From the NCBI GenBank assembly GCA_003345555.1, contig PRDJ01000031.1, positions 1 through 15,555 on the forward strand: a stretch of 15,555 nt of DNA, written 5' to 3'. A program made the translations under genes and the position numbers. Within the stretch, counting starts at the first letter, position 1; every line of letters starts with the position of its first letter. This stretch comes from Candidatus Thorarchaeota archaeon (GTDB lineage Archaea; Asgardarchaeota; Thorarchaeia; Thorarchaeales; Thorarchaeaceae). The notes under the pieces were generated by a model. It searched no databases. It saw nothing but the letters and a program-made list of their open reading frames with translations, and was not told the DNA's origin. Below are positions 1-13,569 of the stretch, one piece after another.

Positions 1-790
1 ACCCTCCTCTGGCGAGAGCATCTGGAATTGCACCTGCAAGACCGGCGAAGGAGCCCACGGTTTTCGCGTAAGGGTACGAATCGTCAGTGACTCTGCCTGC
101 CAATGTGGTGCCGAAGTCAAGAGCCATGACAGGGTTCCGGAAGTCGATGTCTGAACCTTTGACGGCGCCTTTGATTCCTGCTGTGACAAGCTCTCCTTCC
201 ATCTCGTTCGCAACAACCTCTGCACTAGAGGGAGGAAGTGAGCTAGCGACTGCTCCATCAAAATAGACCTTCTTGAGCCAACTGAAGTCTCTGACATCTT
301 CCGGCAGATTCTCCGGGGAAATTGAAGCCGCCATCTTTCGCGGTGGAACTCCTGCAGCAATGCAACCGTCAGCGAGCGCTTTCACCATCTCGCCGACCTC
401 CACGGGCTTTGAGAAACCAGCCGTCACCCCGGTAGATCTTACCACGAAGTGAAGGTCTCTCTCCATGTCAAGATGAGCATCATGTAGGACAGATAGGAGA
501 ATGTCTGAAACGAGTTCCGAGACTGATTTTCGCGTTAGTTCCACACCTGTAATCGTTCTGCCGAAGATGTCCTCGCCATCCTTGGGGGATCTCACGTCCC
601 TTGTGAAGCGAACCTGTTTCGCTATCTCGAAGATTTCAGCTGTGCGGAGATTGGTGCTTACTAGGATGCACTTTGTCGTTGTGTTGCCGAGTTCCACGGA
701 AGCCACCGTGTAAAAAGGACCCGTCCTCAGAGATCCTACCCCTATTGTTCGGGGTCTTATGACCGTAGCACGGTGTGACGTTCCTAACAC
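1..790 (-). CDS. Methanogenesis marker protein 14 (DUF2114 family; ASKHA/actin-like ATPase fold), 3' end truncated by the window edge
   Basis: Not in the ORF track; translated by hand. Open from GTG at 790 (6 nt after the mtrH stop, preceded by GGGGT) to the edge, 263 codons: VLGTSHRATVIRPRTIGVGSLRTGPFYTVASVELGNTTTKCILVSTNL...LHFVVRSTGVTAGF...ALADGCIAAGVPPRKM...FDGAVA...VVANEMEGELVTAGIKG...DFRNPVMALDFGTTLAGR...GLAGAIPDALARG. These blocks match the marker-14 family as I recall it. ELGNTTTK and LDFGTT resemble ASKHA phosphate-1 and phosphate-2 loops. Confidence 0.85.
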   Translation of the reverse strand, partial: MLGTSHRATVIRPRTIGVGSLRTGPFYTVASVELGNTTTKCILVSTNLRTAEIFEIAKQVRFTRDVRSPKDGEDIFGRTITGVELTRKSVSELVSDILLSVLHDAHLDMERDLHFVVRSTGVTAGFSKPVEVGEMVKALADGCIAAGVPPRKMAASISPENLPEDVRDFSWLKKVYFDGAVASSLPPSSAEVVANEMEGELVTAGIKGAVKGSDIDFRNPVMALDFGTTLAGRVTDDSYPYAKTVGSFAGLAGAIPDALARGG

Positions 791-796
791 ACCCCA

Positions 797-1732
797 TCAT
801 AACAACTTGCGGAATGGATGGTTCTCGGAAGGCTGGACACCAAACTCAACGCTTGATGACTCTGCGGCGAAAATATCGGCCATCGCCACAACGGGAAAGA
901 CTGTTCTTGCATTGCTGATTGGCCCATAGAGAATGAAGTTGGCGCCCATCATCTGCACTATCAGGGCAGAAGCCACATCACATGCACGATACGCATCAGG
1001 ATTGGTCTTCTTGTACTTCCGAAGCCAAGACCATGAACTGGGTGCGTTGTGAACCCCAGACCCAGTGGGTTGGCCGTAGAGAGTCTTGGCCACGAATATG
1101 AAGGATGCCGAGGAGCCAGCACCGGCACCCATGGCAGTCGTTGCCGTATCAATGAGAGGTTTTGTGATTCCCACTTCCTCGCCCATTTTCAGCAAGCCCT
1201 TGTCGAGTCCGGGAACTCCATCTTCAAGCACAGCTCGCCTGCCAGCAATCGAGGAGTCGTGAGGATTGAAAGCCAATATCACTGCACAATCATGATGAAT
1301 ATCCTTCAGAGATGCAAGCTCGTCCTTTGTGATGGAGACACTGATCGAATTGTAGATGGCCCTGTCTAGGAGACCGACCTCCTGAGCATGCCTCAAACCC
1401 GCAATCCGCACCTCAGGGCTGGTCGAATCGATAAGAAATGGCGCGTCTGTGACCTCAGCAACGAAATCAAGGTACTTTGTGACTGCCTTCTCAGATTCGG
1501 AAAACACTTGGACAAGAGCAGGATTGCCTGTGGTGTCTGACATCTCATCTTGAACTCGGATTAGCTCCGTCGCGGCCCTCTTGTCAAAGACGCCTTTCCG
1601 AGCATCTTGGACTACGTCGTGCCCACCGTAGAAAATGGTACCAGCAAGAACGGTTGGCATCTCTCCGGGCACGCCTCCGATTCTAATCCCTCCAATGGTA
1701 TGTACAATCTGCTCCTTCTCAAATGCGAACAT
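797..1732 (-). CDS. mtrH: Tetrahydromethanopterin S-methyltransferase subunit H homolog (paralog 1, canonical-looking)
   Basis: 311 aa. N-terminus MFAFEKEQ..IGG..GE.PTVLAGTIFYGGH; motifs FLIDST, IYNSI, LIDTA, GSGVHNAPSSW, NFILYGPI and a C-terminal HPF, all typical of the MtrH/MtxH/MtgA pterin-binding TIM barrel. Confidence 0.93.
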   Translation of the reverse strand: MFAFEKEQIVHTIGGIRIGGVPGEMPTVLAGTIFYGGHDVVQDARKGVFDKRAATELIRVQDEMSDTTGNPALVQVFSESEKAVTKYLDFVAEVTDAPFLIDSTSPEVRIAGLRHAQEVGLLDRAIYNSISVSITKDELASLKDIHHDCAVILAFNPHDSSIAGRRAVLEDGVPGLDKGLLKMGEEVGITKPLIDTATTAMGAGAGSSASFIFVAKTLYGQPTGSGVHNAPSSWSWLRKYKKTNPDAYRACDVASALIVQMMGANFILYGPISNARTVFPVVAMADIFAAESSSVEFGVQPSENHPFRKLL

Positions 1733-1735
1733 ATC

Positions 1736-2431
1736 TCACAGCTCCTTTCCGACAAGTATTGTCCCTGTCTCTGTCCTCTGAACAACGACCGCTATCGTAG
1801 AGGGGTGAGTGGTTACCACTGCGTAGAGGTCTAGCTTCGAGACCAATGAGGAAAACGGATCTACAGAGAGACCATATTCAGGCAGCAGCGCAATAGCGGA
1901 ACCTAATCCTCTCGGGGCTGCCCTTCCGCGTTTAGCCTTGAACTCGACCCACAATGCTTCGCCTCCAAATGGGCCGGGATTCTTTGAGGTCAGTTCGCGA
2001 GCGACCCGAGCAATATCGTCGGGGTTCGTGACATCTATCATGTCTATGAGTTCTACTTGCATCCTGAATCGCTCAATCGCTTCTGTTGGCAGGTTCTCAA
2101 CATAAGGGATGGCTCCTTCGGCTTCGACTATCTTCCGGGTTTCCTTGTCAACGCCCTTCTGATGAAGACATCGTACCGATGAGCCGGTCTTGTGACCAGG
2201 AACCTCTGGTCCTGCCAAAACGAGGTATCTGATGCAGGGATTGGATACTATGTTAACAATCATTCGTTCTATTCCGATGTTCTCAGTCTTGCAGGTGCCG
2301 ATTATGGCGTAGTCTGAATCAACATCTATCTTCTTTCCAAGGGTGCATATTGCGATGCACGAACCAGGATTCTTAACTTCGAAGTCGCCAGGAATCGGCG
2401 GCCATTCCCGCTTCTCAGCACTCGTAACCAT
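1736..2431 (-). CDS. mtrA: MtrA/MtxA-like cobamide methyl-carrier protein, soluble (no C-terminal membrane anchor), with a ~65 aa C-terminal extension
   Basis: 231 aa. WPPIPGDF, G.CKTENIGIE, NIVSNPCIRYLVLAG.EV.GH.TG (His80 matches the cobamide axial-ligand His of MtrA), GAIPYVENL. RBS GGAGG at 2443-2439 overlaps the upstream stop. No long hydrophobic segment at the C-terminus. Confidence 0.92.
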   Translation of the reverse strand: MVTSAEKREWPPIPGDFEVKNPGSCIAICTLGKKIDVDSDYAIIGTCKTENIGIERMIVNIVSNPCIRYLVLAGPEVPGHKTGSSVRCLHQKGVDKETRKIVEAEGAIPYVENLPTEAIERFRMQVELIDMIDVTNPDDIARVARELTSKNPGPFGGEALWVEFKAKRGRAAPRGLGSAIALLPEYGLSVDPFSSLVSKLDLYAVVTTHPSTIAVVVQRTETGTILVGKEL

Positions 2432-2442
2432 AGCAGAACCTC

Positions 2443-3360
2443 CTACTCGAACGACGGCGGCTCGAAAATGGGATGACTTAGTCCCAATGCCTGCTGCGCT
2501 TCAGCGATAGCTGCAGCCATTGCATTTGCTATCAGCGCTGTCGCGGTGAATACTTGCTTGGTCCTTGCCATCGATCCGTACATTATGCAGTCAGTGGCGA
2601 ACAACTGGGCAGCAACAGTCGAAGCTACAATCGCCGAGGTCTGGGTGATCTCGTCATCAAACCCAGCCTGCTTTATGAATTTCCAAGCAGAGGGGGCATT
2701 GTGAGGTCCCAAGCATGTCGGCAGCCCTAATTCCGACTTGATAGCAAGCACGGTTCTGTATTCCAGTCCGTACCCTGCGCCCACCGGCATTGTGGCGGGG
2801 TCTACAACCATCTTCTCGATGCCGATCGCCTTGGCCTCGTCAATCATTGACCGAATCGTCTCCATCCGGTCAGGCAGACTCATCGCCTTGGGTGACCAAC
2901 CAAGAACCACAGCCATCTTCAGAGAACTGTTTCGAAGCAACTGCTTCTCATCATCCTTCATGGACAGATTGATTGAATTGTATATGGCCCTCTTGCTCAA
3001 GCCGGTCTCGTGGCAGTATTCTATGGCCTTCTTTCGCGCATCACCACTTGTTGATTCGAACATAAACGGACCATCGAAGTTCTCACCGAGCCACGACAAG
3101 TGATTCTCCATTGCCTCAGGCGTCCGACCAAAGGCTTGAATGATAAGCGGGTGGCCTGTCTTCTCAACCATCATCTTGGCTGTATCAATCCACTGCTTGG
3201 TCATTTCCTTGTCAAACGTGCCTTCCTTCGCGCTCTTGACGATAGGCTGCGTAGTAAAGAAGAGCCCTCCAATCAACACGGTGGGGTTCTGTCCGGGTTG
3301 GCCGCCAACCGTCACGCCGCCGAAATCAAAAGCCTGCTGCTCCTTCTTGAAAACGAACAT
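2443..3360 (-). CDS. mtrH: MtrH-family methyl-pterin:corrinoid methyltransferase (paralog 2, divergent)
   Basis: The track ORF starts at 3432 inside metF. The likely start is ATG 3360 (MFVFKKEQQ..., matching paralog 1), preceded by TGAGGT overlapping the metF stop; 305 aa. Motifs GGQPGQNPTVLIG, FEST, IYNSI, VVDPAT, GPHNAPSAW, IMYGS, HPIF. Confidence 0.88.
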   Translation of the reverse strand: MFVFKKEQQAFDFGGVTVGGQPGQNPTVLIGGLFFTTQPIVKSAKEGTFDKEMTKQWIDTAKMMVEKTGHPLIIQAFGRTPEAMENHLSWLGENFDGPFMFESTSGDARKKAIEYCHETGLSKRAIYNSINLSMKDDEKQLLRNSSLKMAVVLGWSPKAMSLPDRMETIRSMIDEAKAIGIEKMVVDPATMPVGAGYGLEYRTVLAIKSELGLPTCLGPHNAPSAWKFIKQAGFDDEITQTSAIVASTVAAQLFATDCIMYGSMARTKQVFTATALIANAMAAAIAEAQQALGLSHPIFEPPSFE

Positions 3361-3371
3361 CGTTCTCAACC

Positions 3372-4385
3372 TCACTTCGGTCTGGGGTATAACCCCGAAG
3401 CCTTCACTAGCTCCGGGATGCTCTCTTCCCATCCGATGGCCATGATATGAATGCCATTGATTCCACGAATCATCTTCACTCGGTTGATTGTCTCCAAAGC
3501 GACTGCAATACCCTCAGCACGGACCGCCTCTTTCTTCTCTTCGCCTTTCATTCCTGCGCCAGCAGACTCCAGACGATTAACTATCTCGTCGGAAATCCTA
3601 ATGCCGGGGATTCTCTCATTCATGAAGCGAGCCATCTTCGGTCCTTTCAAGGGGATTACACCTGCCAGTACCTTGACGCCCAATGGCTCAATCTGCTCCA
3701 TGTACTCTTCGAGTCGGGCAGTATCATAAATCGCCTGAGTCTGAAAGAACTGAGCCCCTGCATCACGTTTCTTTTCTACACGCCAGACTTGGAGCTCAAG
3801 CGGGTCAGCATTTGGATTGAATGTCGCACCGAGATGGAAAAGCGGTATGCCCTCAAGCTTCTCCCCGGCCAAGTCCTTCCCCGACATCAGATGACTGGCG
3901 AGCTGTAGGGCTTGGATGGAGTCCAGATCATACACCATCTTTGCCTGAGGATGCGATCCTAGGAGAGTGTGATCGCCCGTAACGAACAGGATGTTGCGAA
4001 TCCCTAGTGCGTATGCACCATAAAGCTCGCTCTCGAAGAGGATGCGATTCCTGTCTCTGGAAGACATCTGCATGACTGGCTCGGCGCCAGCCTGAATGAC
4101 AAAGTGAGCACATGCCATACTGCTCATAGTGGGAATACCGCGGACGTTGTCAGTGATGTTGATTGCGTCACAGTAATCCTTGACGAGACGTGTTCGTTCT
4201 CTTACTAGGTCATCATCAGCGCCATGCGGAGGTCCGACTTCTCCTGTGACAGTGAACTTGCCACTTCGAAGCATGCGCCTGAGCTTGGTTTCTGGTGATT
4301 GCACGCTGTTCTTCAATCTGGCGTCGAAAGACCCCGTCTGAAGACTGACACATATCTCCTTTGGTTGAGCGATACAGGAGTACAT
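3372..4385 (-). CDS. metF: 5,10-methylenetetrahydrofolate reductase, MetF subunit (MetVF type)
   Basis: Motifs TGEVGPP, AINITDN, SRDRN, TGDH, FFQTQ, LAGVIPL, GIHIM. GGAGG lies 5 nt upstream of ATG 4385, which supports that start. GTG 4304 (VQSPETKLRRML) is an alternative closer to the usual family N-terminus. Confidence 0.92.
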   Translation of the reverse strand: MYSCIAQPKEICVSLQTGSFDARLKNSVQSPETKLRRMLRSGKFTVTGEVGPPHGADDDLVRERTRLVKDYCDAINITDNVRGIPTMSSMACAHFVIQAGAEPVMQMSSRDRNRILFESELYGAYALGIRNILFVTGDHTLLGSHPQAKMVYDLDSIQALQLASHLMSGKDLAGEKLEGIPLFHLGATFNPNADPLELQVWRVEKKRDAGAQFFQTQAIYDTARLEEYMEQIEPLGVKVLAGVIPLKGPKMARFMNERIPGIRISDEIVNRLESAGAGMKGEEKKEAVRAEGIAVALETINRVKMIRGINGIHIMAIGWEESIPELVKASGLYPRPK

Positions 4386-4433
4386 ACAGTCCTCCAGCAG
4401 CCAAGATGCACGAAACCAATGGATTCTCTCTTT

Positions 4434-5090
4434 CTAGGCTTCCTCATGGACTACCGAGTGCGGGCCCTGAGACAAGCTCCAGTCCTTTATCTCCCAGATT
4501 GACTTCAGTTTGTCGAGCTTTCCTAGCTTCTTTAGTCGATCATAAATAAGCTGCCAAGCGCAGTCTGTCTCCGGATCTCTCTCGCATTTGCCATTCATCG
4601 AGCCACCACATGGACCATTTAGGATACCTTTCGCACAGCGGGCGAGCGGACAAATGCCACCGGTCAAGTCCAAAATGCATTCACCACACATGATACAGCG
4701 CTCTTGGTGAACAAACCGTTGTGGCATAGTCCCGAGGAACTTCGAATCAGTGGCTGGAAAGGACTCCTTCTCTGGTATCAGTTCTGTGACGTTTTGAGTC
4801 GCTACACCGCATGCCTGTATCAAAAAAGCTTCGGCCTCATCGAGTATCGCCCTATTGTTCTCCATCTCCTGTTTGACAGCATTGACATCGCATATTCCGC
4901 CTTGAACGAATATCTTGCCCAGGACCTGCTTATTGTGCTGTCGCAGAAAATCCTCCATGTCTTCGAGTTGAAGTATGCCGCCCACATCACACATCTGAGC
5001 ACAACCTGAATCACCAAAGAGGACTATCTTCTCGTATCCCTCCAACATCCGGAGAATCTCATCTGGTGATTTCAATTCCATGGCAATCAT
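4434..5090 (-). CDS. metV: MetV, Cys-rich small subunit of methylene-tetrahydrofolate reductase
   Basis: Cys cluster ERCIMCGEC..TGGICPLARCAKGILNGPCGG..GKCE..DCAWQLIYDRL, directly upstream of metF. Start chosen at ATG 5090 (MIAMELKSPDEI) because it fits the family N-terminus. The track's ATG 5129 abuts a TATA-like box. Confidence 0.88.
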   Translation of the reverse strand: MIAMELKSPDEILRMLEGYEKIVLFGDSGCAQMCDVGGILQLEDMEDFLRQHNKQVLGKIFVQGGICDVNAVKQEMENNRAILDEAEAFLIQACGVATQNVTELIPEKESFPATDSKFLGTMPQRFVHQERCIMCGECILDLTGGICPLARCAKGILNGPCGGSMNGKCERDPETDCAWQLIYDRLKKLGKLDKLKSIWEIKDWSLSQGPHSVVHEEA

Positions 5091-5130
5091 AGAGAGGACG
5101 TCACTCGTACTAAGTCGTCGATACTGCATC

Positions 5131-5169: not shown

Positions 5170-6483
5170 TCATGCACCCTGGGCCGGATTATCGGACTTT
5201 GGCTCCAATTTCCGAATCGCATCTTGTGGGAGCATCTTCAGGAGCTTCTGAGCAACGTCAAGACTGAGACTGGCCTCTACCTCGATTCGATCCTCTTTGA
5301 ACTTCTGATTGCGAACACTACCAACCTGATGCAACCACGAGATGAGAGACATAGTCGAGTCACCATATGGCAAATCGATTGAGTAGACGGACAAGATTGG
5401 CAGTAGACTTTCAATTACGCTGACAAGCGTCGGAAGATTGAGCATTTCCTTTGCAGAGACAGGTACCACCTCGGACCCGACGCCGTCAAGTGCGGAAATC
5501 CTCTCTCTGATGCCTGCATCGTCAATGAGATCAACCTTATTCAAGGCAGTGACAATTGGAATCCCGTTAATCCCGATTCGTGTGAATGTGTCTAGGCATA
5601 CATTCGCTTTTCGTCGGACCTCGTCCACAGAATTAGACCCATCGACAACGAGAAGAATGACATCTGCGTCAGCAATCTCCATCAAAGTAGTGTTGAACGC
5701 GCGAAGCAACGACTTTGGAAGATCACTTATGAAACCAACAGAGTCCGTGAGAACTACCTGCCGACCATCCATCGCTAAGTCAGAGGACTTGGTGGAGAGG
5801 GTTGTGAAGAGCCCAGCTGCGACCTCCACTTGTGACCCGGTCAATGCGCGATGAAGGGTGCTCTTGCCTGCATTAGTATAACCTGCAAGGGCCACTTCAA
5901 GAAAGCCCGAATCAACTCTCTTCTTCCGTTTCAACTCTGAAGCTTCAGATATCTTCTGCAGCTTCTCCTCGATGGCTGCAACACGATGCCTAATCTCCAT
6001 GTATCGGAGATTGAGAAGGTCCTCGCCAGGTCCCACTTGTCGTCCTACCGGTCTTGGACCTGCGCGTTCTTTGTCGAGGTGTTCTTTGAGCTGGTGTCGT
6101 ACGAAAGGAAGCTCATAGCTCAGCCTTGCTTGTTCAATTTGCAGTTTAGATTGAGGGGTTCGTGCGTGTCTATCGAATATCTCCAGAATGAGCTGGACTC
6201 TGTCCCTCACATCCGTTTTCCATTCTTCCTTCAGTCTGTACATCTGGCTTGACTTAAGCCCCGGAGAATAGAAGACGACGTCAGGCTTCTGGGCTTCAAT
6301 CCAGATCCTGATTTCCTCAACCTTGCCGCCCTTGATTCCAAATCGTGCTGACGACGGCCCCACAACATCGAAGGTTCCAACTACGTTGTACTCGGCTGTC
6401 TTAGCTAGGGCCTCGAATTCCTCAAGCAAGTCCGGATCGCGTGCGAACCTATGCTGGACGAGGAGCGCAGTTGTTGAAACCAT
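5170..6483 (-). CDS. hflX: Ribosome-associated GTPase HflX
   Basis: 437 aa. HflX N-domain (ILEIFDRHART..SKLQIEQARLSYELP), GPGE motif, G1 GYTNAGKS, G2 LFTTL, G3 DSVGF, G4 NKVD, G5 SAK. Confidence 0.96.
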   Translation of the reverse strand: MVSTTALLVQHRFARDPDLLEEFEALAKTAEYNVVGTFDVVGPSSARFGIKGGKVEEIRIWIEAQKPDVVFYSPGLKSSQMYRLKEEWKTDVRDRVQLILEIFDRHARTPQSKLQIEQARLSYELPFVRHQLKEHLDKERAGPRPVGRQVGPGEDLLNLRYMEIRHRVAAIEEKLQKISEASELKRKKRVDSGFLEVALAGYTNAGKSTLHRALTGSQVEVAAGLFTTLSTKSSDLAMDGRQVVLTDSVGFISDLPKSLLRAFNTTLMEIADADVILLVVDGSNSVDEVRRKANVCLDTFTRIGINGIPIVTALNKVDLIDDAGIRERISALDGVGSEVVPVSAKEMLNLPTLVSVIESLLPILSVYSIDLPYGDSTMSLISWLHQVGSVRNQKFKEDRIEVEASLSLDVAQKLLKMLPQDAIRKLEPKSDNPAQGA

Positions 6484-6580: not shown

Positions 6581-8653
6581 TTGAGCCAGTTTGAGATTCG
6601 TGCTAAGGATGGACTTGCTCGTCTTGGCAGGTTCGAGACCAATCACGGAACAGTCACAACGCCCCTCCTGATGCCGGTCGTCCATCCGGGGAAATCAGAG
6701 GTAACACCAAGTCAGCTGGTATCCGAGTTCAAGTTTCAGATGGTCATAACTAACGCATACATCATCAAATCCACAGACCGCTTCAGAGACGCGGCACTTG
6801 ACAAGGGAGTGCATTCACTTCTCAACTTCAGCGGGCCCATCATGACAGACTCCGGGACGTTCCAGATGTACACTCATGGTCTTCCGGAGGGAGAGATTGA
6901 TCCTATGGACATCGTGAGCTTCCAGCGGCAAATTGGTTCGGATGTCGGTACAATCCTTGACACGTTTTCGGACCCCTATGCTACATGGGCTAGAGTTGAG
7001 CAGGATGTACAAGTGTCAACGGAGAGAGCTAGAATATCCATCCCCGTAAAGGGAGACATGCTTCTTGCAGGCACTGTCCAAGGAGGCATATACCCAGATT
7101 TGCGAATCAGAGCAGCTGACGAGATGGCGCCTCTGAATATCGACGTTCATCCTATTGGCGGTCTCGTGCCTCTCATGGAGCAGTATCGCTATGCTGACAT
7201 TGTGAGGGCAACCCTTGCGGCTAAGTCGCACCTTCCGCCTCAACGTCCAGTCCACCTCTTCGGATGCGGTCACCCGATGTTCTTTGCACAGGCGGTTCTC
7301 ATGGGCTGCGACCTCTTCGACTCGGCATCTTATGCCAAATTTGCGGAATCGGGCCGACTGTTGTTTCCCACCGGCACTGTTCACCTGAGCGACCTCCGAG
7401 AGTTGCCATGTGAATGCCCTGCGTGCAACAGCACAACAATCGATGATTTGCAACGCCTAGATAAAGCGGCGCAGTCGCTCATTCTTACGAAGCACAACCT
7501 GTATGTCAGCGCAGCCGAGATCAGGAGAGTGCGACAGGCGATTGCCGACGGCAATCTGTTAGAGCTTGCTGCGTTGCGCGCCCGGAGCCACCCAGCACTC
7601 TATGAGGCCCTGGATATTTTTCTTGAACAAATAGGAAACATAGAATCGTCGGCACCTAGTGCAAACGCAAAGTCGGTTTTCTACACGGGTCCCGAGACAG
7701 CAAGACATCCGCTACTCAGAACCTTCCAGTATAGAATCCTCGAGCGATATCCATTCAGAAGAACGAGGATGCTCGTGATGGTGCCTGACATGGGTGCCAA
7801 ACCATTCTCAGAAACCAATCAGGCAATCGAGAACGAAGTGAAGATGCGTGACCCTGCCGAGATGCTCTTGTTCTATGTCACACCTATAGGAGTGGTCCCG
7901 TGGGAACTGGAGCATGTGTACCCCGCCCAACAAACCATCTTTCCTGCGAGTGTGGATTCTGAGTGCCTGACTGCAGCTGGAGAAAGCCTGACTAGACTGC
8001 TGAGTACAATGGAATTCGATGACTGCATGTGGGTGTCGAGAGAGACACCGACCAATGTGCTGTCGGCGGCGACCGGACTGAGTGATAGAGCGACCAAGGT
8101 GTCAGGGGTTTCTGAGCTATCGCAAATCCTGCCGGCGGCAAGCCACCCGCAGCTCTGGCAGAAGAGAGTGATAGCGGGTGTCTGTGCCTTTCAGTGGGAT
8201 GTAAGAGACATGGACAGCTTCGGGCTCAACGAATTAGGAATAACCCTCTCTTCGTCAACAGGCAAGATACGGCATATCACGCGAAATGGCAAGGTGCTCT
8301 TCACGTTGGTTCCAACCAATGGACTACTGACCCCGACATACGACGGCGGCAGGCTTCTTCTGAAGTCGGGCCTGAAGGACGATTACAAGGTTGTAGTTGA
8401 CGATGATGCCGCTCCGTTTGTAGCGGATGGCAAATCCGTCATGACCAAGTTCGTCAAATGGGCCGGCCCGCATCTGATGGCGGGTGAGGAAGTGCTCGTT
8501 GTTGATTCCAAAGGCGAGTTCTTAGGATCCGGAAAGGCCGTTCTAAATGGCAGAGAAATGATGGCATTTAGGCGGGGTGTCGCTGTCATCATGCGGCACT
8601 CGAAGAAACAGCCGCCGGTTGACTATAAAGAGGATGACCAGGAATCTTTCTGA
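6581..8653 (+). CDS. tgtA: Archaeosine tRNA-guanine(15) transglycosylase with C-terminal PUA domain
   Basis: 690 aa, TTG start with GAGGA upstream. Motifs DGLARLG, TPLLMPV, MTDSGTFQ, HPIGG.VPLME.Y, HLFG.GHPMFFA.AV.MGCDLFDSASY, Zn site CECPAC...H, and a PUA-like C-terminus (GKSVMTKFV..GEEVLVVD..G.AVLNG.EM..F.RGVAV). Confidence 0.95.
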   Translation: MSQFEIRAKDGLARLGRFETNHGTVTTPLLMPVVHPGKSEVTPSQLVSEFKFQMVITNAYIIKSTDRFRDAALDKGVHSLLNFSGPIMTDSGTFQMYTHGLPEGEIDPMDIVSFQRQIGSDVGTILDTFSDPYATWARVEQDVQVSTERARISIPVKGDMLLAGTVQGGIYPDLRIRAADEMAPLNIDVHPIGGLVPLMEQYRYADIVRATLAAKSHLPPQRPVHLFGCGHPMFFAQAVLMGCDLFDSASYAKFAESGRLLFPTGTVHLSDLRELPCECPACNSTTIDDLQRLDKAAQSLILTKHNLYVSAAEIRRVRQAIADGNLLELAALRARSHPALYEALDIFLEQIGNIESSAPSANAKSVFYTGPETARHPLLRTFQYRILERYPFRRTRMLVMVPDMGAKPFSETNQAIENEVKMRDPAEMLLFYVTPIGVVPWELEHVYPAQQTIFPASVDSECLTAAGESLTRLLSTMEFDDCMWVSRETPTNVLSAATGLSDRATKVSGVSELSQILPAASHPQLWQKRVIAGVCAFQWDVRDMDSFGLNELGITLSSSTGKIRHITRNGKVLFTLVPTNGLLTPTYDGGRLLLKSGLKDDYKVVVDDDAAPFVADGKSVMTKFVKWAGPHLMAGEEVLVVDSKGEFLGSGKAVLNGREMMAFRRGVAVIMRHSKKQPPVDYKEDDQESF

Positions 8654-9746
8654 GTGCGTCCACACCTCCCAGTGGCAGCACCATCACGTTTGCTCTGGGT
8701 GCGAACAAACGGATCTTGTCACCCTTACTTGCCGGGGCATCTGGAGGCAGCAAGGAAACTGCATCGATGTCACCTACCTTGAAGTGGATTTCCAAGTTGC
8801 TACCCAGATAGACGACCTCGTTCGCGACGCCCATAATCTCGTTATCTGTTGGATCAGTGCGTTCAGTCTGCAAGTCCTCAGGCCGGACGGCGCATCTTAC
8901 ACGTTCTCCAACCTGAAATGGATAACCCTCCAAGGGACTTCTTCCAGAGACTACTTGTCCGTCTGGCAAACGGGCTTTCATATACTCTCCAAGAGATGTG
9001 ATTTCTGCGTCGATAAATGTGCACTTACCGATGAAGTCTGCAACAAAGATAGTCTGTGGTCTGGCGTAGATTTCTTTCGGCGAGGCATATTGCTGAATGT
9101 ATCCCTTGTCCATGACTGCCACCATGTCAGATATGCTAAGCGCCTCGTTCTGATCATGAGTGACATAGACTGTTGTGATACTTAGCTCCTTCTGAATTCG
9201 CATTATTTCCTCTCGCATCTCGTGTCTGAGCTTGGCATCAAGGTTTGAGAGCGGCTCATCGAGAAGCAAGACATCTGGCTCTATGACTAGAGCTCGGGCG
9301 AGTGCTACCCTCTGCTGCTGGCCTCCACTTAGCTGATGAGGAGTACGATTGGCTAGGCCTTGCATGTGGACAAGGTCAATTACCTTCTCGACCCGGTTTG
9401 CTATTGCGGCAGGCGTGTACTTCATACCATTCATTCGCTTCATTTTTAGGCCGTAAGATATGTTATCAAACACGGTCATGTGAGGCCACAGTGCGTAGTT
9501 CTGGAAGCACATACCTGTCTTCCTCTTGTTAGGCGGAATCTCTGTCACATCTCTGTCATCGAAGAAGATTCGTCCTCTATCAGGAATGTAGAATCCGGCA
9601 ATTAGCCTGAGTAGTGTGGTCTTGCCGCAGCCCGAGGGCCCGAGCAACGTAGTCAGTTTGCCCTCCTCCAGATCCATGTTGACATCGTCTGTGGCTATGA
9701 CATCGCCGAATGTTTTTCTCAAGTTGACTAAGTGAATGGTAACCAT
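8589..9746 (-). CDS. ABC importer ATP-binding subunit (FbpC/AfuC/PotA-like) with C-terminal regulatory (TOBE-like) domain
   Basis: Walker A GPSGCGKT, signature LSGGQQQR, Walker B LLLDE, H-loop THDQ. Start ATG 9746 preferred over 9755 because GGTGA lies just upstream. The 3' end overlaps tgtA. Confidence 0.94.
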   Translation of the reverse strand: MVTIHLVNLRKTFGDVIATDDVNMDLEEGKLTTLLGPSGCGKTTLLRLIAGFYIPDRGRIFFDDRDVTEIPPNKRKTGMCFQNYALWPHMTVFDNISYGLKMKRMNGMKYTPAAIANRVEKVIDLVHMQGLANRTPHQLSGGQQQRVALARALVIEPDVLLLDEPLSNLDAKLRHEMREEIMRIQKELSITTVYVTHDQNEALSISDMVAVMDKGYIQQYASPKEIYARPQTIFVADFIGKCTFIDAEITSLGEYMKARLPDGQVVSGRSPLEGYPFQVGERVRCAVRPEDLQTERTDPTDNEIMGVANEVVYLGSNLEIHFKVGDIDAVSLLPPDAPASKGDKIRLFAPRANVMVLPLGGVDALRKIPGHPLYSQPAAVSSSAA

Positions 9747-9756
9747 GACTATCACC

Positions 9757-11799
9757 CTATATACCGGTCATTGCCGAAGCTCTGGTCTTCAAAATCCTGT
9801 TCGTCACCGTTATCACAACCATCTGCATGCTCATCATCAGTACGCCAAGGGCCGCTGCGGGACCAATCCCATATATCGGGGGAAGGCCGGCTCGTGTCAC
9901 ATTTATCCAATAGGTAAGAGGAGCCTGGTAGTAGTTTGCACCGCCCAGCAACAAGCTTGTACTGACCTCACTCACGCAGTAAACGAATGATAGAAGGGCG
10001 CCTGCGAGAACACTCAGGCCAATCAGAGGGACCACAATTTTCGCAAAAGTGGTATTACGACCTGCCCCGACATTGAGAGACGCCTCTTCCATCACCACAG
10101 GGGTCTGCTGTAGCCCCGCGTATGCAGCTCTTACCGTGAAAGGAAACTTCCTCACTAAGTATGACATCACGATCAGGAACATTGGTGCGTCCCTTGGAAA
10201 GAAAGGAGTGTTGTAGAAGAGTGTGAAATAGCCTGCGGCAATCACAGTGCCGGGAATCGCGATGGGCGAGGTGACAAGCAGGTCAAGTGCAGTGCGCCCG
10301 GGAATCTTCCGTCTCGATATTATGTATGCAGCGGAGACTCCCAAGAGGACAATGCCGATGGTGGCTATCCCTGCATAGCTGAGTGTTCTTGTAAGGGCAC
10401 CCTGAATGTCTGAGTTCATCAGTATAGCGAAATTATCCAATGTCAACGGAGGGAATAATGCACTAGAGCGATACTCGGCAAATGAGAGTAGAATAACACT
10501 CATCTGAGGAATCAGAGCAAAGAACAGCATGGACACTACCAGCAGATAGAGGAGGACTGTTGCTCTCGCACTAAGTCTTCTTGTCCGGGGATTCCATTGA
10601 CCCCCCTTGCTGCCTGATGCGTAGCTCCTCAGAGCAGCATACTTACGGATTGCCAAGAAACCCATGAGAGCGAATGCTAGGAGAATCATTCCGATGGCGG
10701 GGCCAATAGGGCTTATCGAGCCTGATTCAGATGTGATGTTGATGAATACCTGATATGCGAGACAATGCTGGGCCTGCAAATCCTCGCTGAATACAATGGG
10801 AGTTCCCAGGTCTTCGATGCTCAAGATGAATGCCAGTATCGCTCCGGCTTGGATGCCAGGCATCGCGAGTGGAAGCGTAACCGTCCTGAACAACGTGAAG
10901 CCCTTCGCCCCAAGGTTCTCAGCCTGTTCTTCAAGGGATGGGTCTATCGATACAAAAGAGGAATACGCGTTCAAGTATACCAAAGAGAAAAGGGACAAAC
11001 CCTGCACCAGTATTATCGCAGCCAGACCGTGAAACTCAATCCGTGTCCAAGTTAAGCCGAACCATGAAAAGAACGCAGACGCAAGGTTATTCAGAAACCC
11101 GTTCCCGCCCAAGAACCACTTTATCCCAATGGCGCCAACAAATGGTGTTGATAGCATTGGGAACAGAAGCACTGTCCGAAGTATCGTCTTTCCTCGGAAC
11201 TCATATCGGGCAATCAGGTAAGCGAAGAAAGTGCCAAGAGCAACGGCAATACACGTGACAATAGCGGCCACATATAGGGAATTCAAGATGACGCCCATCT
11301 CGATCCCCCATATCTCCACGATTCCACTCGGGCTCGGTCGGATCACCCGAAAGTCAGCCGGAGACCATTGTGGCAGAAAGACCGGGTTTCTCAAAAGAAG
11401 CAGGATTACGAATTCGCCTTCTTGAATCGTGAAGGACCCAACGACGACCTTAAGGAGAGGCGCAATCAGAAACACTCCGAAGACGATTATGATGGCCAGA
11501 AGCTGAATCGAGGATAGTGAGTCCATCTCTCTCCTGAATGTGTGCACACCGGAAATGAACTTGTCAGAAAGAATCCTAGTGTTCTTGGCGGGGCTGCGCA
11601 GAAAGCCAGCTAGACGTACGACGCCCCGCCAAGTCCACTTAACGAATCGAATGATGCGCTGTGCAATGCCTTTGAACAGCCCTATGACTAGGTTGCCCAA
11701 GGATCGGAGGACGGCGACAAAGAGGTTCTCTTGTCTTACCATTTCAGTACCGGGAGATTCCGATTCTGTGGTTTCTGAGACTTCCGCCACATTGTCCAC
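9757..11799 (-). CDS. ABC importer permease with two fused MetI-like halves (FbpB/AfuB/ThiP type)
   Basis: Many hydrophobic helices and two EAA loops (LEEQAENLGA.GFTLFRTVTLPL and MEEASLNVGAGRNTTFAKIVVPL). The start (GTG 11799) is uncertain. Confidence 0.9.
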   Translation of the reverse strand: MDNVAEVSETTESESPGTEMVRQENLFVAVLRSLGNLVIGLFKGIAQRIIRFVKWTWRGVVRLAGFLRSPAKNTRILSDKFISGVHTFRREMDSLSSIQLLAIIIVFGVFLIAPLLKVVVGSFTIQEGEFVILLLLRNPVFLPQWSPADFRVIRPSPSGIVEIWGIEMGVILNSLYVAAIVTCIAVALGTFFAYLIARYEFRGKTILRTVLLFPMLSTPFVGAIGIKWFLGGNGFLNNLASAFFSWFGLTWTRIEFHGLAAIILVQGLSLFSLVYLNAYSSFVSIDPSLEEQAENLGAKGFTLFRTVTLPLAMPGIQAGAILAFILSIEDLGTPIVFSEDLQAQHCLAYQVFINITSESGSISPIGPAIGMILLAFALMGFLAIRKYAALRSYASGSKGGQWNPRTRRLSARATVLLYLLVVSMLFFALIPQMSVILLSFAEYRSSALFPPLTLDNFAILMNSDIQGALTRTLSYAGIATIGIVLLGVSAAYIISRRKIPGRTALDLLVTSPIAIPGTVIAAGYFTLFYNTPFFPRDAPMFLIVMSYLVRKFPFTVRAAYAGLQQTPVVMEEASLNVGAGRNTTFAKIVVPLIGLSVLAGALLSFVYCVSEVSTSLLLGGANYYQAPLTYWINVTRAGLPPIYGIGPAAALGVLMMSMQMVVITVTNRILKTRASAMTGI

Positions 11800-11835
11800 G
11801 TCCGCTTACTTGAGCAGCCCAGTACCTCCTATCGT

Positions 11836-13254
11836 CTAGATCATTGAGAGCAGCTCGGCGAGCACCAGATCATATTGTGCGTTCGCTGCAGCTGTCCACA
11901 GTGTCTTCATGTTGTAGCGGAATATATCGCTCGTGAGGATGTCATTGTTGATCTCCGTTGCGTATTCGATCGTAAACTGATGTTCGATTAGGTCCACCGT
12001 CACATTCACGGGTGTCCCCATTTTTGCGGCCAGCATGTCCAGCTCTGGCAGCGTGATGTTCGTGGCATAGTATGCATCAACCATCGCTTTCCAAGTCGTC
12101 TGGAGCTTATCATGAGCATCGTTGAAGACGGATTCGAAGTAGTATATGAAAGCTGCATTTGTGAGAAGAGACAGTGTGTCGTTGAAATCAATGCCTTGAT
12201 TGGCCAAGGTCTTGTTGAATACCGCGTATAGATCAGGGTGCAATAGTCCTCTTTCAGTCAGAAACGCTTCAGCGAGAACTGGCATCCGGTTGATTCCCGG
12301 GTTAAACCAATAGGCTTGACCCTCGGCTGATAGTATGAAATCTAGGAAACCTTCAGCTAGTGTCAACTTTGGTGTGTCTTTCACAATCGCTATAGGATCT
12401 CCGTTAACAATCGTCTGATTCACTGGGAGTACGTACTCGCAATCTGGGTTGTTCACTTGTGAAGAGAGGCCGTAGTAATCGATTGACATAGCTACACCGA
12501 CTTGCTCGGTCTCCGCTGCCGACTGAGTCTCAACAGAGCCTTGATAGAGCCGGGCACTGCCAGCCATTCGAGCGAGGTTGACCCAGCCATTATTCCAGCC
12601 CATTCCTTGAGTCATTATTTCGTAGATTCTGGTATTCGATGTAGTCGCGGGGGCATTTCCCATGGCGATTGTCGCAGTAGGTAAGATACTGCCCCAAATG
12701 GGGTCTGCCAAGTCCGTCCAGGTCTCTGGCGTTGGTAGGCCGTAATCGGTGAGAAATGCCTTGTTGATAGTAAAGCCGAATGAAGAGATCGCAGCGGCAA
12801 CCCATATCGTCTGGCCTTCAGTGTTATTCCGCTTCATGTCGGCTCCTGCTATCTCATTCGGAACTCTTGCCAGAACGGTAAGCATGTGGGTGCTGTTCAG
12901 GGATTGTAGGTGGCCGTCCCGCTGCATCTGGTCAAACAACGTAGGCCCTCCACCCCAAAGTACATCGACGCCTCCACCATCTATGACCTGTTTCCAATAC
13001 GAACCGGCTTGCGTCTTCCACATAATATCCTTGATATTGTTCTGCTTGGCAAAGTCAGTTGCTAGAAACGCAGTCTCAAAGACGCTTTGAATTGATGTAT
13101 CGTGTCGCGTGAGAATCGTAAGTGTCTGCTCTCCGACCTGAGGGGGAGGCAGGATAATAATGACTACCGCCGCGCCCAAGACAGCTACGATGACGACGAC
13201 AATCACAATCGTCTTGACATTGCGCCCAGCCTGTAATTCTCCTGAGGACACCAT
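11836..13254 (-). CDS. ABC substrate-binding protein, FbpA/AfuA-like type II periplasmic fold, N-terminally membrane anchored
   Basis: N-terminal hydrophobic anchor IVIVVVIVAVLGAAVVIIIL. Motifs DVLWGGG, P.PETW.DL.DP, IVNGDPIAIVK, FLDFILS.EGQ. GGTGA upstream of ATG 13254. First gene of an SBP-permease-ATPase operon. Confidence 0.88.
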   Translation of the reverse strand: MVSSGELQAGRNVKTIVIVVVIVAVLGAAVVIIILPPPQVGEQTLTILTRHDTSIQSVFETAFLATDFAKQNNIKDIMWKTQAGSYWKQVIDGGGVDVLWGGGPTLFDQMQRDGHLQSLNSTHMLTVLARVPNEIAGADMKRNNTEGQTIWVAAAISSFGFTINKAFLTDYGLPTPETWTDLADPIWGSILPTATIAMGNAPATTSNTRIYEIMTQGMGWNNGWVNLARMAGSARLYQGSVETQSAAETEQVGVAMSIDYYGLSSQVNNPDCEYVLPVNQTIVNGDPIAIVKDTPKLTLAEGFLDFILSAEGQAYWFNPGINRMPVLAEAFLTERGLLHPDLYAVFNKTLANQGIDFNDTLSLLTNAAFIYYFESVFNDAHDKLQTTWKAMVDAYYATNITLPELDMLAAKMGTPVNVTVDLIEHQFTIEYATEINNDILTSDIFRYNMKTLWTAAANAQYDLVLAELLSMI

Positions 13255-13569
13255 CAATCACCACTTTCAGATAGACTTCATCCAGAAAAAGAGAGACGAG
13301 CACCATGTCATCTCTTTTACTGGTCCTTCAAACAACAATGGGCCGAGAGGCGATATTAAAGGTTTGTCACTGACGAGGGCGTTCAGATGTCGGAATACAG
13401 GTTGTCCGAAGAGTCGGTAACAAAAAGCCTGTGCAGAACAATGCTATCGTCACGGACCGCCGTTTGTGTTGCCCTTCGCGTCCCTAAAAGTCTAAATAGT
13501 GCACCTGACAGCCCGAAGTCATCCTCTCAATACCTCGCTCTGAGGAGAAGAGGAGGAGATGAATATATA

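Follow-up and report, generated by a model that had tools for sequence, protein, structure and literature searches.

Corrinoid methyl carriers are inactivated when their cobamide is oxidized from Co(I) to Co(II), and the known rescuers are ATP-dependent RACE-type activases, proteins of the actin/Hsp70-like (ASKHA) superfamily. In O-demethylase operons, such activating enzymes are positioned after a methyltransferase–corrinoid protein–methyltransferase set. The cobamide of Mtr, which carries out the energy-conserving methyltransferase step of most methanogens, must also stay as Co(I), and we know of no factor that keeps it in that state in cells. Here we analyze a 15,555-nt stretch of DNA (the window; positions 1 to 15,555 of contig PRDJ01000031.1, assembly GCA_003345555.1) from a metagenome-assembled genome (MAG) of a Thorarchaeota (Asgard) archaeon, which carries the N-terminal half of a gene for methanogenesis marker 14 (TIGR03285; PF09887, or DUF2114; arCOG04866; m26; MMP1223) behind genes for the corrinoid protein MtrA and the methyltransferase MtrH. 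We show that the gene belongs to this family, encodes a predicted ASKHA fold with conserved ATP-site motifs, is under purifying selection, lies in a conserved gene order and follows MtrA in its distribution; we propose that its product is probably, by a modest balance of the evidence, an ATP-driven factor that maintains the cobamide of MtrA.

Earlier work had already described the family, placed it in Thorarchaeia and associated it with Mtr. In 2014, Borrel et al. found marker 14 (arCOG04866) missing from the Mtr-less Methanomassiliicoccales and located near mtr in four orders, and proposed a part for it in the function of Mtr (PMC4153887). Adam et al. (2022) equated m26 with DUF2114 and MMP1223, called MtrAH plus m26 in Thorarchaeia “remnants”, and held that several markers should be demoted (PMC9635834). 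A first-pass annotation of this DNA had put forward the Mtr link and a caution against using the family as a methanogenesis marker; both are anticipated by these two papers, the latter including Thorarchaeia. Neither of them names a fold or mechanism of marker 14, and a 2026 preprint on the [Fe8S9C] cluster in MtrCDE mentions neither marker 14 nor activation.

The gene occupies positions 2–790 on the minus strand of the window. It is an open reading frame (ORF) of 263 residues with a GTG start, open at the window start, and it begins 6 nt past the TGA stop of mtrH (797–1732). The 6-nt spacer (791–796, minus strand) reads TGGGGT on the coding strand and places a GGGGT box ahead of the start codon, a spacing compatible with co-transcription. 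The first-pass annotation had pointed to an ORF at exactly this distance from mtrH with four quoted motifs, all of which are present, and had suggested a profile search against the marker 14 models. This search matched TIGR03285 at 381 bits (E 6e-114; cut-off 274) over profile positions 1–236 of 446 and PF09887 at 382 bits (E 3.5e-114), far above chance. The ORF is therefore the N-terminal half of a canonical marker 14 (DUF2114) gene, a typical representative of an established family that is still uncharacterised and whose Thorarchaeota orthologues carry the NCBI name “methanogenesis marker 14 protein”. The C-terminal ~215 residues are missing from the window copy because the window starts at base 1 of the contig, so that the gene is halved by an assembly break and not by biology. 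In line with this, near-identical contigs from wetland metagenomes extend beyond window position 1, and the full-length protein in genomes of the same genus has 478 residues and is 81–82% identical across the shared half. The closest relative, encoded in a long-read MAG (L026:8001-9412), is 92% identical to the window copy, and the ratio of nonsynonymous to synonymous substitution rates (dN/dS) of 0.04 between the two argues for purifying selection on marker 14. In that MAG the marker 14 gene is spread over three frames and metF, cofE and larC are broken too, a pattern that fits assembly indel errors rather than pseudogenes.

Several blocks of the window copy correspond to the nucleotide-binding elements of ASKHA proteins. 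SVELGNTTTK (residues 31–40; 671–700, minus strand, as are all motifs here) corresponds to the phosphate-1 loop and lies on the first β-hairpin of the structural model described below, with a Glu in place of the Asp usual in ASKHA proteins. NPVMALDFGTT (residues 219–229; 104–136) corresponds to the phosphate-2 loop, which the model places in a hairpin (E218-223/E226-232). Between them lies the VVANEMEGELVTAG block (residues 192–205; 176–217), whose N-E-M-E-G is nearly invariant family-wide, and GLAGA follows at residues 250–254 (29–43). Across 108 family members, E-x-G-N-T-T-x-K, N-E-M-E-G, D-x-G-T-T and G-x-T-G-R are conserved at 95% or more, and marker 14 has the phosphate-1, phosphate-2 and adenosine motifs of the ASKHA superfamily. 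Three cysteines are also kept in at least 99% of the 108 sequences (C140, C438 and C457 in the numbering of the full-length homologue P0002). The first of these lies in ALADGC (362–379) of the window copy; C438 and C457 fall past the contig end.

To model the fold, P0002, a full-length homologue of 478 residues from the same genus, was aligned with 34 family members and predicted with AlphaFold2, giving a model with a predicted local distance difference test score (pLDDT) of 92.5 and a predicted template modelling score (pTM) of 0.92. An exhaustive structure search with VIA-align returned 146 PDB representatives at Z ≥ 8, of which the 50 best listed all belong to the ASKHA superfamily. The best match is the type III pantothenate kinase CoaX (Z 17.4 over 249 residues); below it stand, among others, FtsA (17.0), the MbdQ/BcrAD-type ATPase of 3-methylbenzoyl-CoA reductase (16.9), an AnmK-like protein (16.7), MK0840 (16.5), Kae1/TsaD (about 16), EutJ (15.5) and the HadI activator (15.2). 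The matches listed by Foldseek are likewise all ASKHA proteins, including the corrinoid activase RACo (3zyy/4c1n). Some 250–300 of the 478 residues align to ASKHA structures; the rest, about 180 residues, are family-specific insertions. The model thus supports marker 14 as a predicted nucleotide-binding protein of the ASKHA superfamily, with two RNase-H-like domains in the actin/Hsp70/sugar-kinase topology, as the first-pass annotation had anticipated from the motifs. The closer resemblance that it saw to the diol dehydratase reactivase subunit DdrA was not supported. DdrA (2d0o_A) ranks 34th with Z 12.9 and 13% identity, with 33 ASKHA entries above it, among them CoaX, FtsA, the BcrAD-type ATPase and Kae1 at Z 15–17; and a Pfam search at E ≤ 10 matched marker 14 to no other ASKHA family and to no DDR, EutA or MutL family. 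The resemblance to DdrA appears to be generic and to reflect the shared superfamily only. A family-profile sequence search of the PDB gave nothing meaningful, with a best E of 1.1.

The marker 14 gene is the last of six co-oriented, tightly spaced genes on the minus strand (window positions 1–5129), a soluble operon of the order metV-metF-mtrH'-mtrA-mtrH-marker 14 in which it is the last catalytic-looking gene. MtrH (797–1732) is of the canonical type (TIGR01114, 403 bits against a cut-off of 271; PF02007, 391 bits). MtrA, the corrinoid carrier (1736–2431; PF04208, 186 bits), keeps His79 of the G-H-x-T-G loop, a residue invariant in 27 MtrA sequences, methanogens included, and comparison of C-termini shows that the Thorarchaeota protein is soluble, a conserved tail of ~60 residues replacing the C-terminal membrane helix of methanogen MtrA. 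MtrH' (2443–3360) is a second, divergent MtrH paralogue (TIGR01114, 238 bits, below the cut-off; PF02007, 242 bits) whose longest ORF reaches 3432, an internal Met being the likely start. Upstream lie a MetF-type methylene-tetrahydropterin reductase (3372–4385; PF02219, 117 bits) and its MetV-like partner (DUF5981; 4434–5129; PF12225, 118 bits). In the host genome, which is 93.5% complete and encodes a single MtrA, searches found neither McrA nor MtrE. Marker 14 thus stays behind mtrA-mtrH where no MtrE of the membrane complex is found, as the first-pass annotation had stated, and its expectation of a host without Mcr agrees with the searches of this genome and of the other Thorarchaeaceae. 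Its description of marker 14 as a protein of unknown function typical of methanogens stands as far as the uncharacterised family is concerned; the “only in methanogens” definition attached to the marker 14 model fails, because this host has neither Mcr nor MtrE, an exception that earlier work had already published. Two RACo/RamA-type corrinoid activase genes are located elsewhere in the host (G000:C42:28299-29039 and G000:C41:16698-17456).

The distribution of the family separates MtrA from McrA. Of 301 evenly sampled Asgard genomes, those with marker 14 are 73 of the 76 Thorarchaeaceae (16 genera) and a single member of another family; the remaining ~224 lack it. Canonical, high-scoring MtrA of ~232 residues is present in 71 of the same 76, and McrA in none of the 77 Thorarchaeaceae genomes covered by its search. 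Weaker MtrA-like domains, mostly in ORFs of 330–590 residues with a few shorter, are found in 22 genomes of other Asgard families besides that single member, all lacking marker 14. Halobacteriota offer a second comparison, in which searches for the three proteins in 201 genomes were cross-tabulated by hand and counted by eye. All three occur together in 102 genomes and none in 59. McrA and MtrA without marker 14 are found in four genomes, McrA and marker 14 without MtrA in two, McrA alone in three, MtrA and marker 14 without McrA in 27, marker 14 alone in four, and MtrA alone in none. Marker 14 is therefore concordant with MtrA in 191 of 201 genomes and with McrA in 163, and it sides with MtrA in 30 of the 32 genomes that have just one of McrA and MtrA. 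Among the four Mcr- and Mtr-positive genomes that lack marker 14, one has a weak MtrA-like match only, plus Acr-like McrA matches; three such genomes, on closer examination, look like assembly gaps rather than counter-examples, and in one of them (G436) the contig stops 2.7 kb past mtrA, where relatives hold marker 14. In M. jannaschii, a Methanothermococcus genome and three genomes of ~1 Mb, which encode both MtrA and marker 14, searches found no RACE-type activase (PF14574). The constant evolutionary partner of marker 14 is canonical MtrA with MtrH; neither Mcr nor MetE nor the membrane subunits of Mtr are tied to it. The first-pass annotation had proposed comparing co-occurrence with mtrA and mcrA, and on this comparison the family tracks mtrA; that marker 14 goes with MtrA and not with Mcr is firmly supported, yet already published.

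Some observations from the same samples deserve record. A non-Thorarchaeaceae Asgard genome (G033, 80% complete) carries marker 14 (C91:8955-10268) and a very high-scoring MtrA of 221 bits (C86:1976-2458) with no McrA or MtrE match; it could be either a binning artefact or another Asgard lineage that carries the module. In several Asgard families that lack marker 14, MtrA-like domains lie within ORFs of ~500–590 residues, probably as fusions (G030:C2:24108-24626, G060:C1:1763237-1763731). Of the marker 14 matches in two small Halobacteriota genomes (G370:C22:49770-51020 and G328:C1:348945-350192), one carries two in-frame TGA codons and the other carries one, for which sequencing error, selenocysteine or recoding could each account.

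Synteny in relatives shows how closely the gene is bound to the MtrA-MtrH unit. Within Thorarchaeota, metF-mtrH'-mtrA-mtrH-marker 14 is kept in every locus long enough to contain it (seven genomes of seven genera and ~25 named MAG contigs), and the distance from mtrH to marker 14 is fixed at 6–20 nt. Next on the same strand always come genes for a CofE-type F420-0:gamma-glutamyl ligase-family protein (PF01996) and a LarC-type “nickel insertion” protein (PF01969), seen at L017:10967-13308, L015:12005-14265 and ~25 other loci; here they would fall beyond the window start. In Methanobacteriales, marker 14 lies directly downstream of mtrH; in several Halobacteriota lineages it follows an mtr operon with duplicated mtrA; and in an ANME-1-like genome it is divergent from mtrE, 314 nt apart. 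A 0.99-Mb single-contig Halobacteriota genome (CP061209.1, “Methanosarcinales archaeon”; 431000-446000) has the order mtrA(no anchor)-mtrH-orf345-marker 14-coreMetE-thyA-mch. This genome has no McrA, MtrE or RACE gene on search, orf345 has no Pfam match, and the operon resembles a MetH-like methionine synthase in split form, with methyl-tetrahydromethanopterin (methyl-H4MPT) as its methyl source. About 12 similar genomes of 0.8–1.6 Mb in the Halobacteriota sample are also without McrA. In a GC-rich Methanobacteriota MAG (L048:4581-10904), marker 14 sits a few kilobases downstream of mtrH, flanked on one side by a CobN chelatase in two parts, the N-half on the same strand and the C-half on the opposite one, and on the other side by DUF2115 plus core-MetE. 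An FrhB-like Fe-S/F420 gene upstream of Methanosarcina marker 14 was considered as a clue to an electron donor and rejected, being conserved only at the genus-to-family level.

We favor a maintenance role for marker 14 because of its ASKHA fold, its operon position after a methyltransferase–corrinoid protein–methyltransferase set and its presence where a genome encodes MtrA without any RACE gene. Fold, phyletic pattern and gene neighbourhood all suit a protein that keeps cobalt as Co(I). We infer that marker 14 would hydrolyze ATP, take MtrA as its direct client and act on it by redox or chaperone chemistry. Two modes are conceivable. The one that we tentatively prefer, though at less than even chances, is reductive reactivation, in which ATP binding or hydrolysis by marker 14 would reshape Co(II)-MtrA and a low-potential donor would then return it to Co(I). 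The other, loading or exchange of cobamide into the unusual binding site of MtrA, seems unlikely to be the main activity; reductive reactivation is somewhat the more likely of the two. A bolder extension, that marker 14 is the first of a new type of activase for corrinoid proteins, an MtrA-specific ASKHA ATPase without a built-in Fe-S domain that keeps the cobamide as Co(I), is conceivable but doubtful.

Several findings weigh against this proposal. Marker 14 lacks the ferredoxin-like Fe-S domain of RACE activases according to Pfam, and its three invariant cysteines are scattered and form no cluster motif. It has no PF14574 match, and hhalign aligns it with the RACo-like protein of the host at a probability of 0.65%. 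Lacking both an Fe-S domain and sequence similarity to RACE proteins, marker 14 offers the three conserved cysteines as its only candidates for an electron path. The two RACE-type activases of the host could themselves serve MtrA, and the best structural neighbours of marker 14 include small-molecule kinases. In Methanosarcinales and Methanococcales no mtr gene lies within 8 kb of marker 14, in some lineages it is core-MetE that adjoins it (CP061209.1 and the L048 MAG), and four members of a divergent DUF2114 subfamily are divergent to one or two tandem core-MetE genes on contigs without MtrA. The Halobacteriota counts come from genomes for which completeness is not given, and relatives among them are not independent observations. 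A literature search found no paper assigning a function, fold or mechanism to DUF2114. A complex prediction for MtrA with marker 14 scored a median of 0.33, compared with 0.45 for a control in which MtrA was replaced, and counts neither way on binding.

Other explanations account for parts of the same evidence. Marker 14 could be a DdrA-like cofactor-exchange chaperone, the main analogy of the first-pass annotation, that would remove damaged or inactive cobamide from MtrA and admit fresh cofactor, with no electron transfer. The ASKHA fold with its G-N-T-T phosphate loop, the presence of DdrA among the structural matches (Z 12.9) and the split CobN gene next to marker 14 in one Methanobacteriota MAG would agree with this, as would the non-standard fold in which MtrA binds its cobamide, reportedly shown by Wagner et al. 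in 2016. However, DdrA at rank 34 is no nearer than a generic ASKHA protein, the DDR, EutA and MutL families gave no Pfam match at E ≤ 10, and no DdrB-like small subunit is seen in the operon. Moreover, the clients of DdrA are adenosylcobalamin (AdoCbl) radical enzymes with irreversibly damaged cofactor, and such damage is not known for methyl-transfer corrinoid proteins. We consider this explanation unlikely. The kinases at the head of the structural list (type III pantothenate kinase at 17.4, AnmK-like at 16.7, MK0840 at 16.5) suggest instead a small-molecule kinase or other ASKHA enzyme in the biosynthesis or salvage of a cofactor (cobamide, an H4MPT-type pterin or similar), so that the link to MtrA would reflect a shared demand for cofactor. 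The G-N-T loop of marker 14, which we take to be CoaX-like, and the neighbouring CofE-type ligase and LarC-type genes in Thorarchaeota and CobN in L048 fit such a role. Yet the ~180 residues of insertions have no counterpart in the kinases, and marker 14 is missing from the Asgard families whose proteins are MtrA-like, from Mtr-less methanogens and from Methanomassiliicoccales (the last according to PMC4153887). Being absent from many corrinoid-using archaea, it goes with a single protein, canonical MtrA, rather than with the pathway of a cofactor, and we regard a biosynthetic enzyme as improbable.

The core-MetE neighbours raise the further idea that marker 14 serves as adaptor or activator for an archaeal methionine synthase split into MtrH, MtrA and core-MetE, with the MetE step as its real client. 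Core-MetE does follow marker 14 directly in the 0.99-Mb Halobacteriota genome and similarly in the Methanobacteriota MAG, and the four divergent-subfamily members adjoin one or two core-MetE genes. Against this, PF01717 (Meth_synt_2, core-MetE) was found neither in the host nor in any of 41 Thorarchaeaceae genomes, where marker 14 is nevertheless retained. The four contigs with the divergent subfamily (within L115-L119, Logan contigs of runs SRR11308164-170) all derive from one study, and proteins of this subfamily (~390–409 residues, 19–27% identity) have degenerate phosphate loops and lack the three conserved cysteines. MetE as the universal client was rejected because 0 of 41 Thorarchaeaceae genomes have it, and we regard a MetE-centered role as very improbable. 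Lastly, the word “remnants” applied by Adam et al. (2022) to MtrAH and m26 in Thorarchaeia (PMC9635834) could be taken to mean that marker 14 is there a functionless relic of lost methanogenesis. The dN/dS of 0.04, the occurrence in 73 of 76 family genomes of 16 genera, the retention of all family-invariant motif residues and the fixed 6–20 nt spacing behind mtrH leave this already disfavored view with hardly any credit.

Should marker 14 maintain the MtrA cobamide, it would fill the in vivo activation step of Mtr, and would do so also in the soluble MtrAH descendants of non-methanogens. The Thorarchaeota operon and the ~1-Mb archaeal genome each offer an all-soluble set of three to four proteins on which the proposal is testable without membrane complexes. 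Independently of the published work, DUF2114 reports MtrA and not methane metabolism, which is relevant to screens of MAGs that use “methanogenesis markers”.

Beyond the operon, the window encodes an HflX GTPase (5170–6483, minus strand) and a PUA-domain archaeosine tRNA-guanine transglycosylase (6581–8653, plus strand), a flank conserved alongside the operon across Thorarchaeota genera. A putative ABC importer set follows on the minus strand (8589–13257), assigned by sequence appearance only: a putative ATPase (8589–9755), a long putative fused permease of 680 residues (9757–11799) and a putative substrate-binding protein of 473 residues (11836–13257).

Compared with described systems, the window copy is closest to marker 14 itself: it scores above the family cut-off, keeps the invariant motifs and shares the published linkage to Mtr, but its host lacks Mcr and MtrE and the copy is halved by the contig end. 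RACE activases (RACo, RamA and the O-demethylase activating enzyme; COG3894, PF14574) resemble marker 14 in their ASKHA fold and in being encoded beside a corrinoid protein and methyltransferases; RACo is among the Foldseek matches, and genomes with MtrA but without a RACE gene do hold marker 14. Apart from the Fe-S domain, marker 14 departs from them in its ~180 residues of unique insertions. DdrA and GdrA, the α subunits of diol and glycerol dehydratase reactivases, service a B12 enzyme at the expense of ATP and share the ASKHA fold and a G-N-x-T-T-type phosphate loop. They differ in being a mid-list structural match without a Pfam DDR hit, in having a DdrB-like partner where marker 14 has MtrH upstream and CofE-like and LarC-like neighbours downstream, and in serving radical AdoCbl enzymes rather than methyl-carrier proteins. 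The “archerase” ATPases HgdC, HadI and BcrAD, also ASKHA proteins, couple ATP to low-potential electron transfer through a [4Fe-4S] cluster held between two subunits. They are among the best structural matches of marker 14 (Z 16.9 and 15.2), although it has no BcrAD_BadFG Pfam match. The reactivation module of MetH has an unrelated fold and chemistry, using reductive methylation dependent on S-adenosylmethionine and not ATP, yet it provides a functional analogy, in which MtrH would correspond to the pterin module, MtrA to the cobalamin module, and an extra factor would rescue Co(II).

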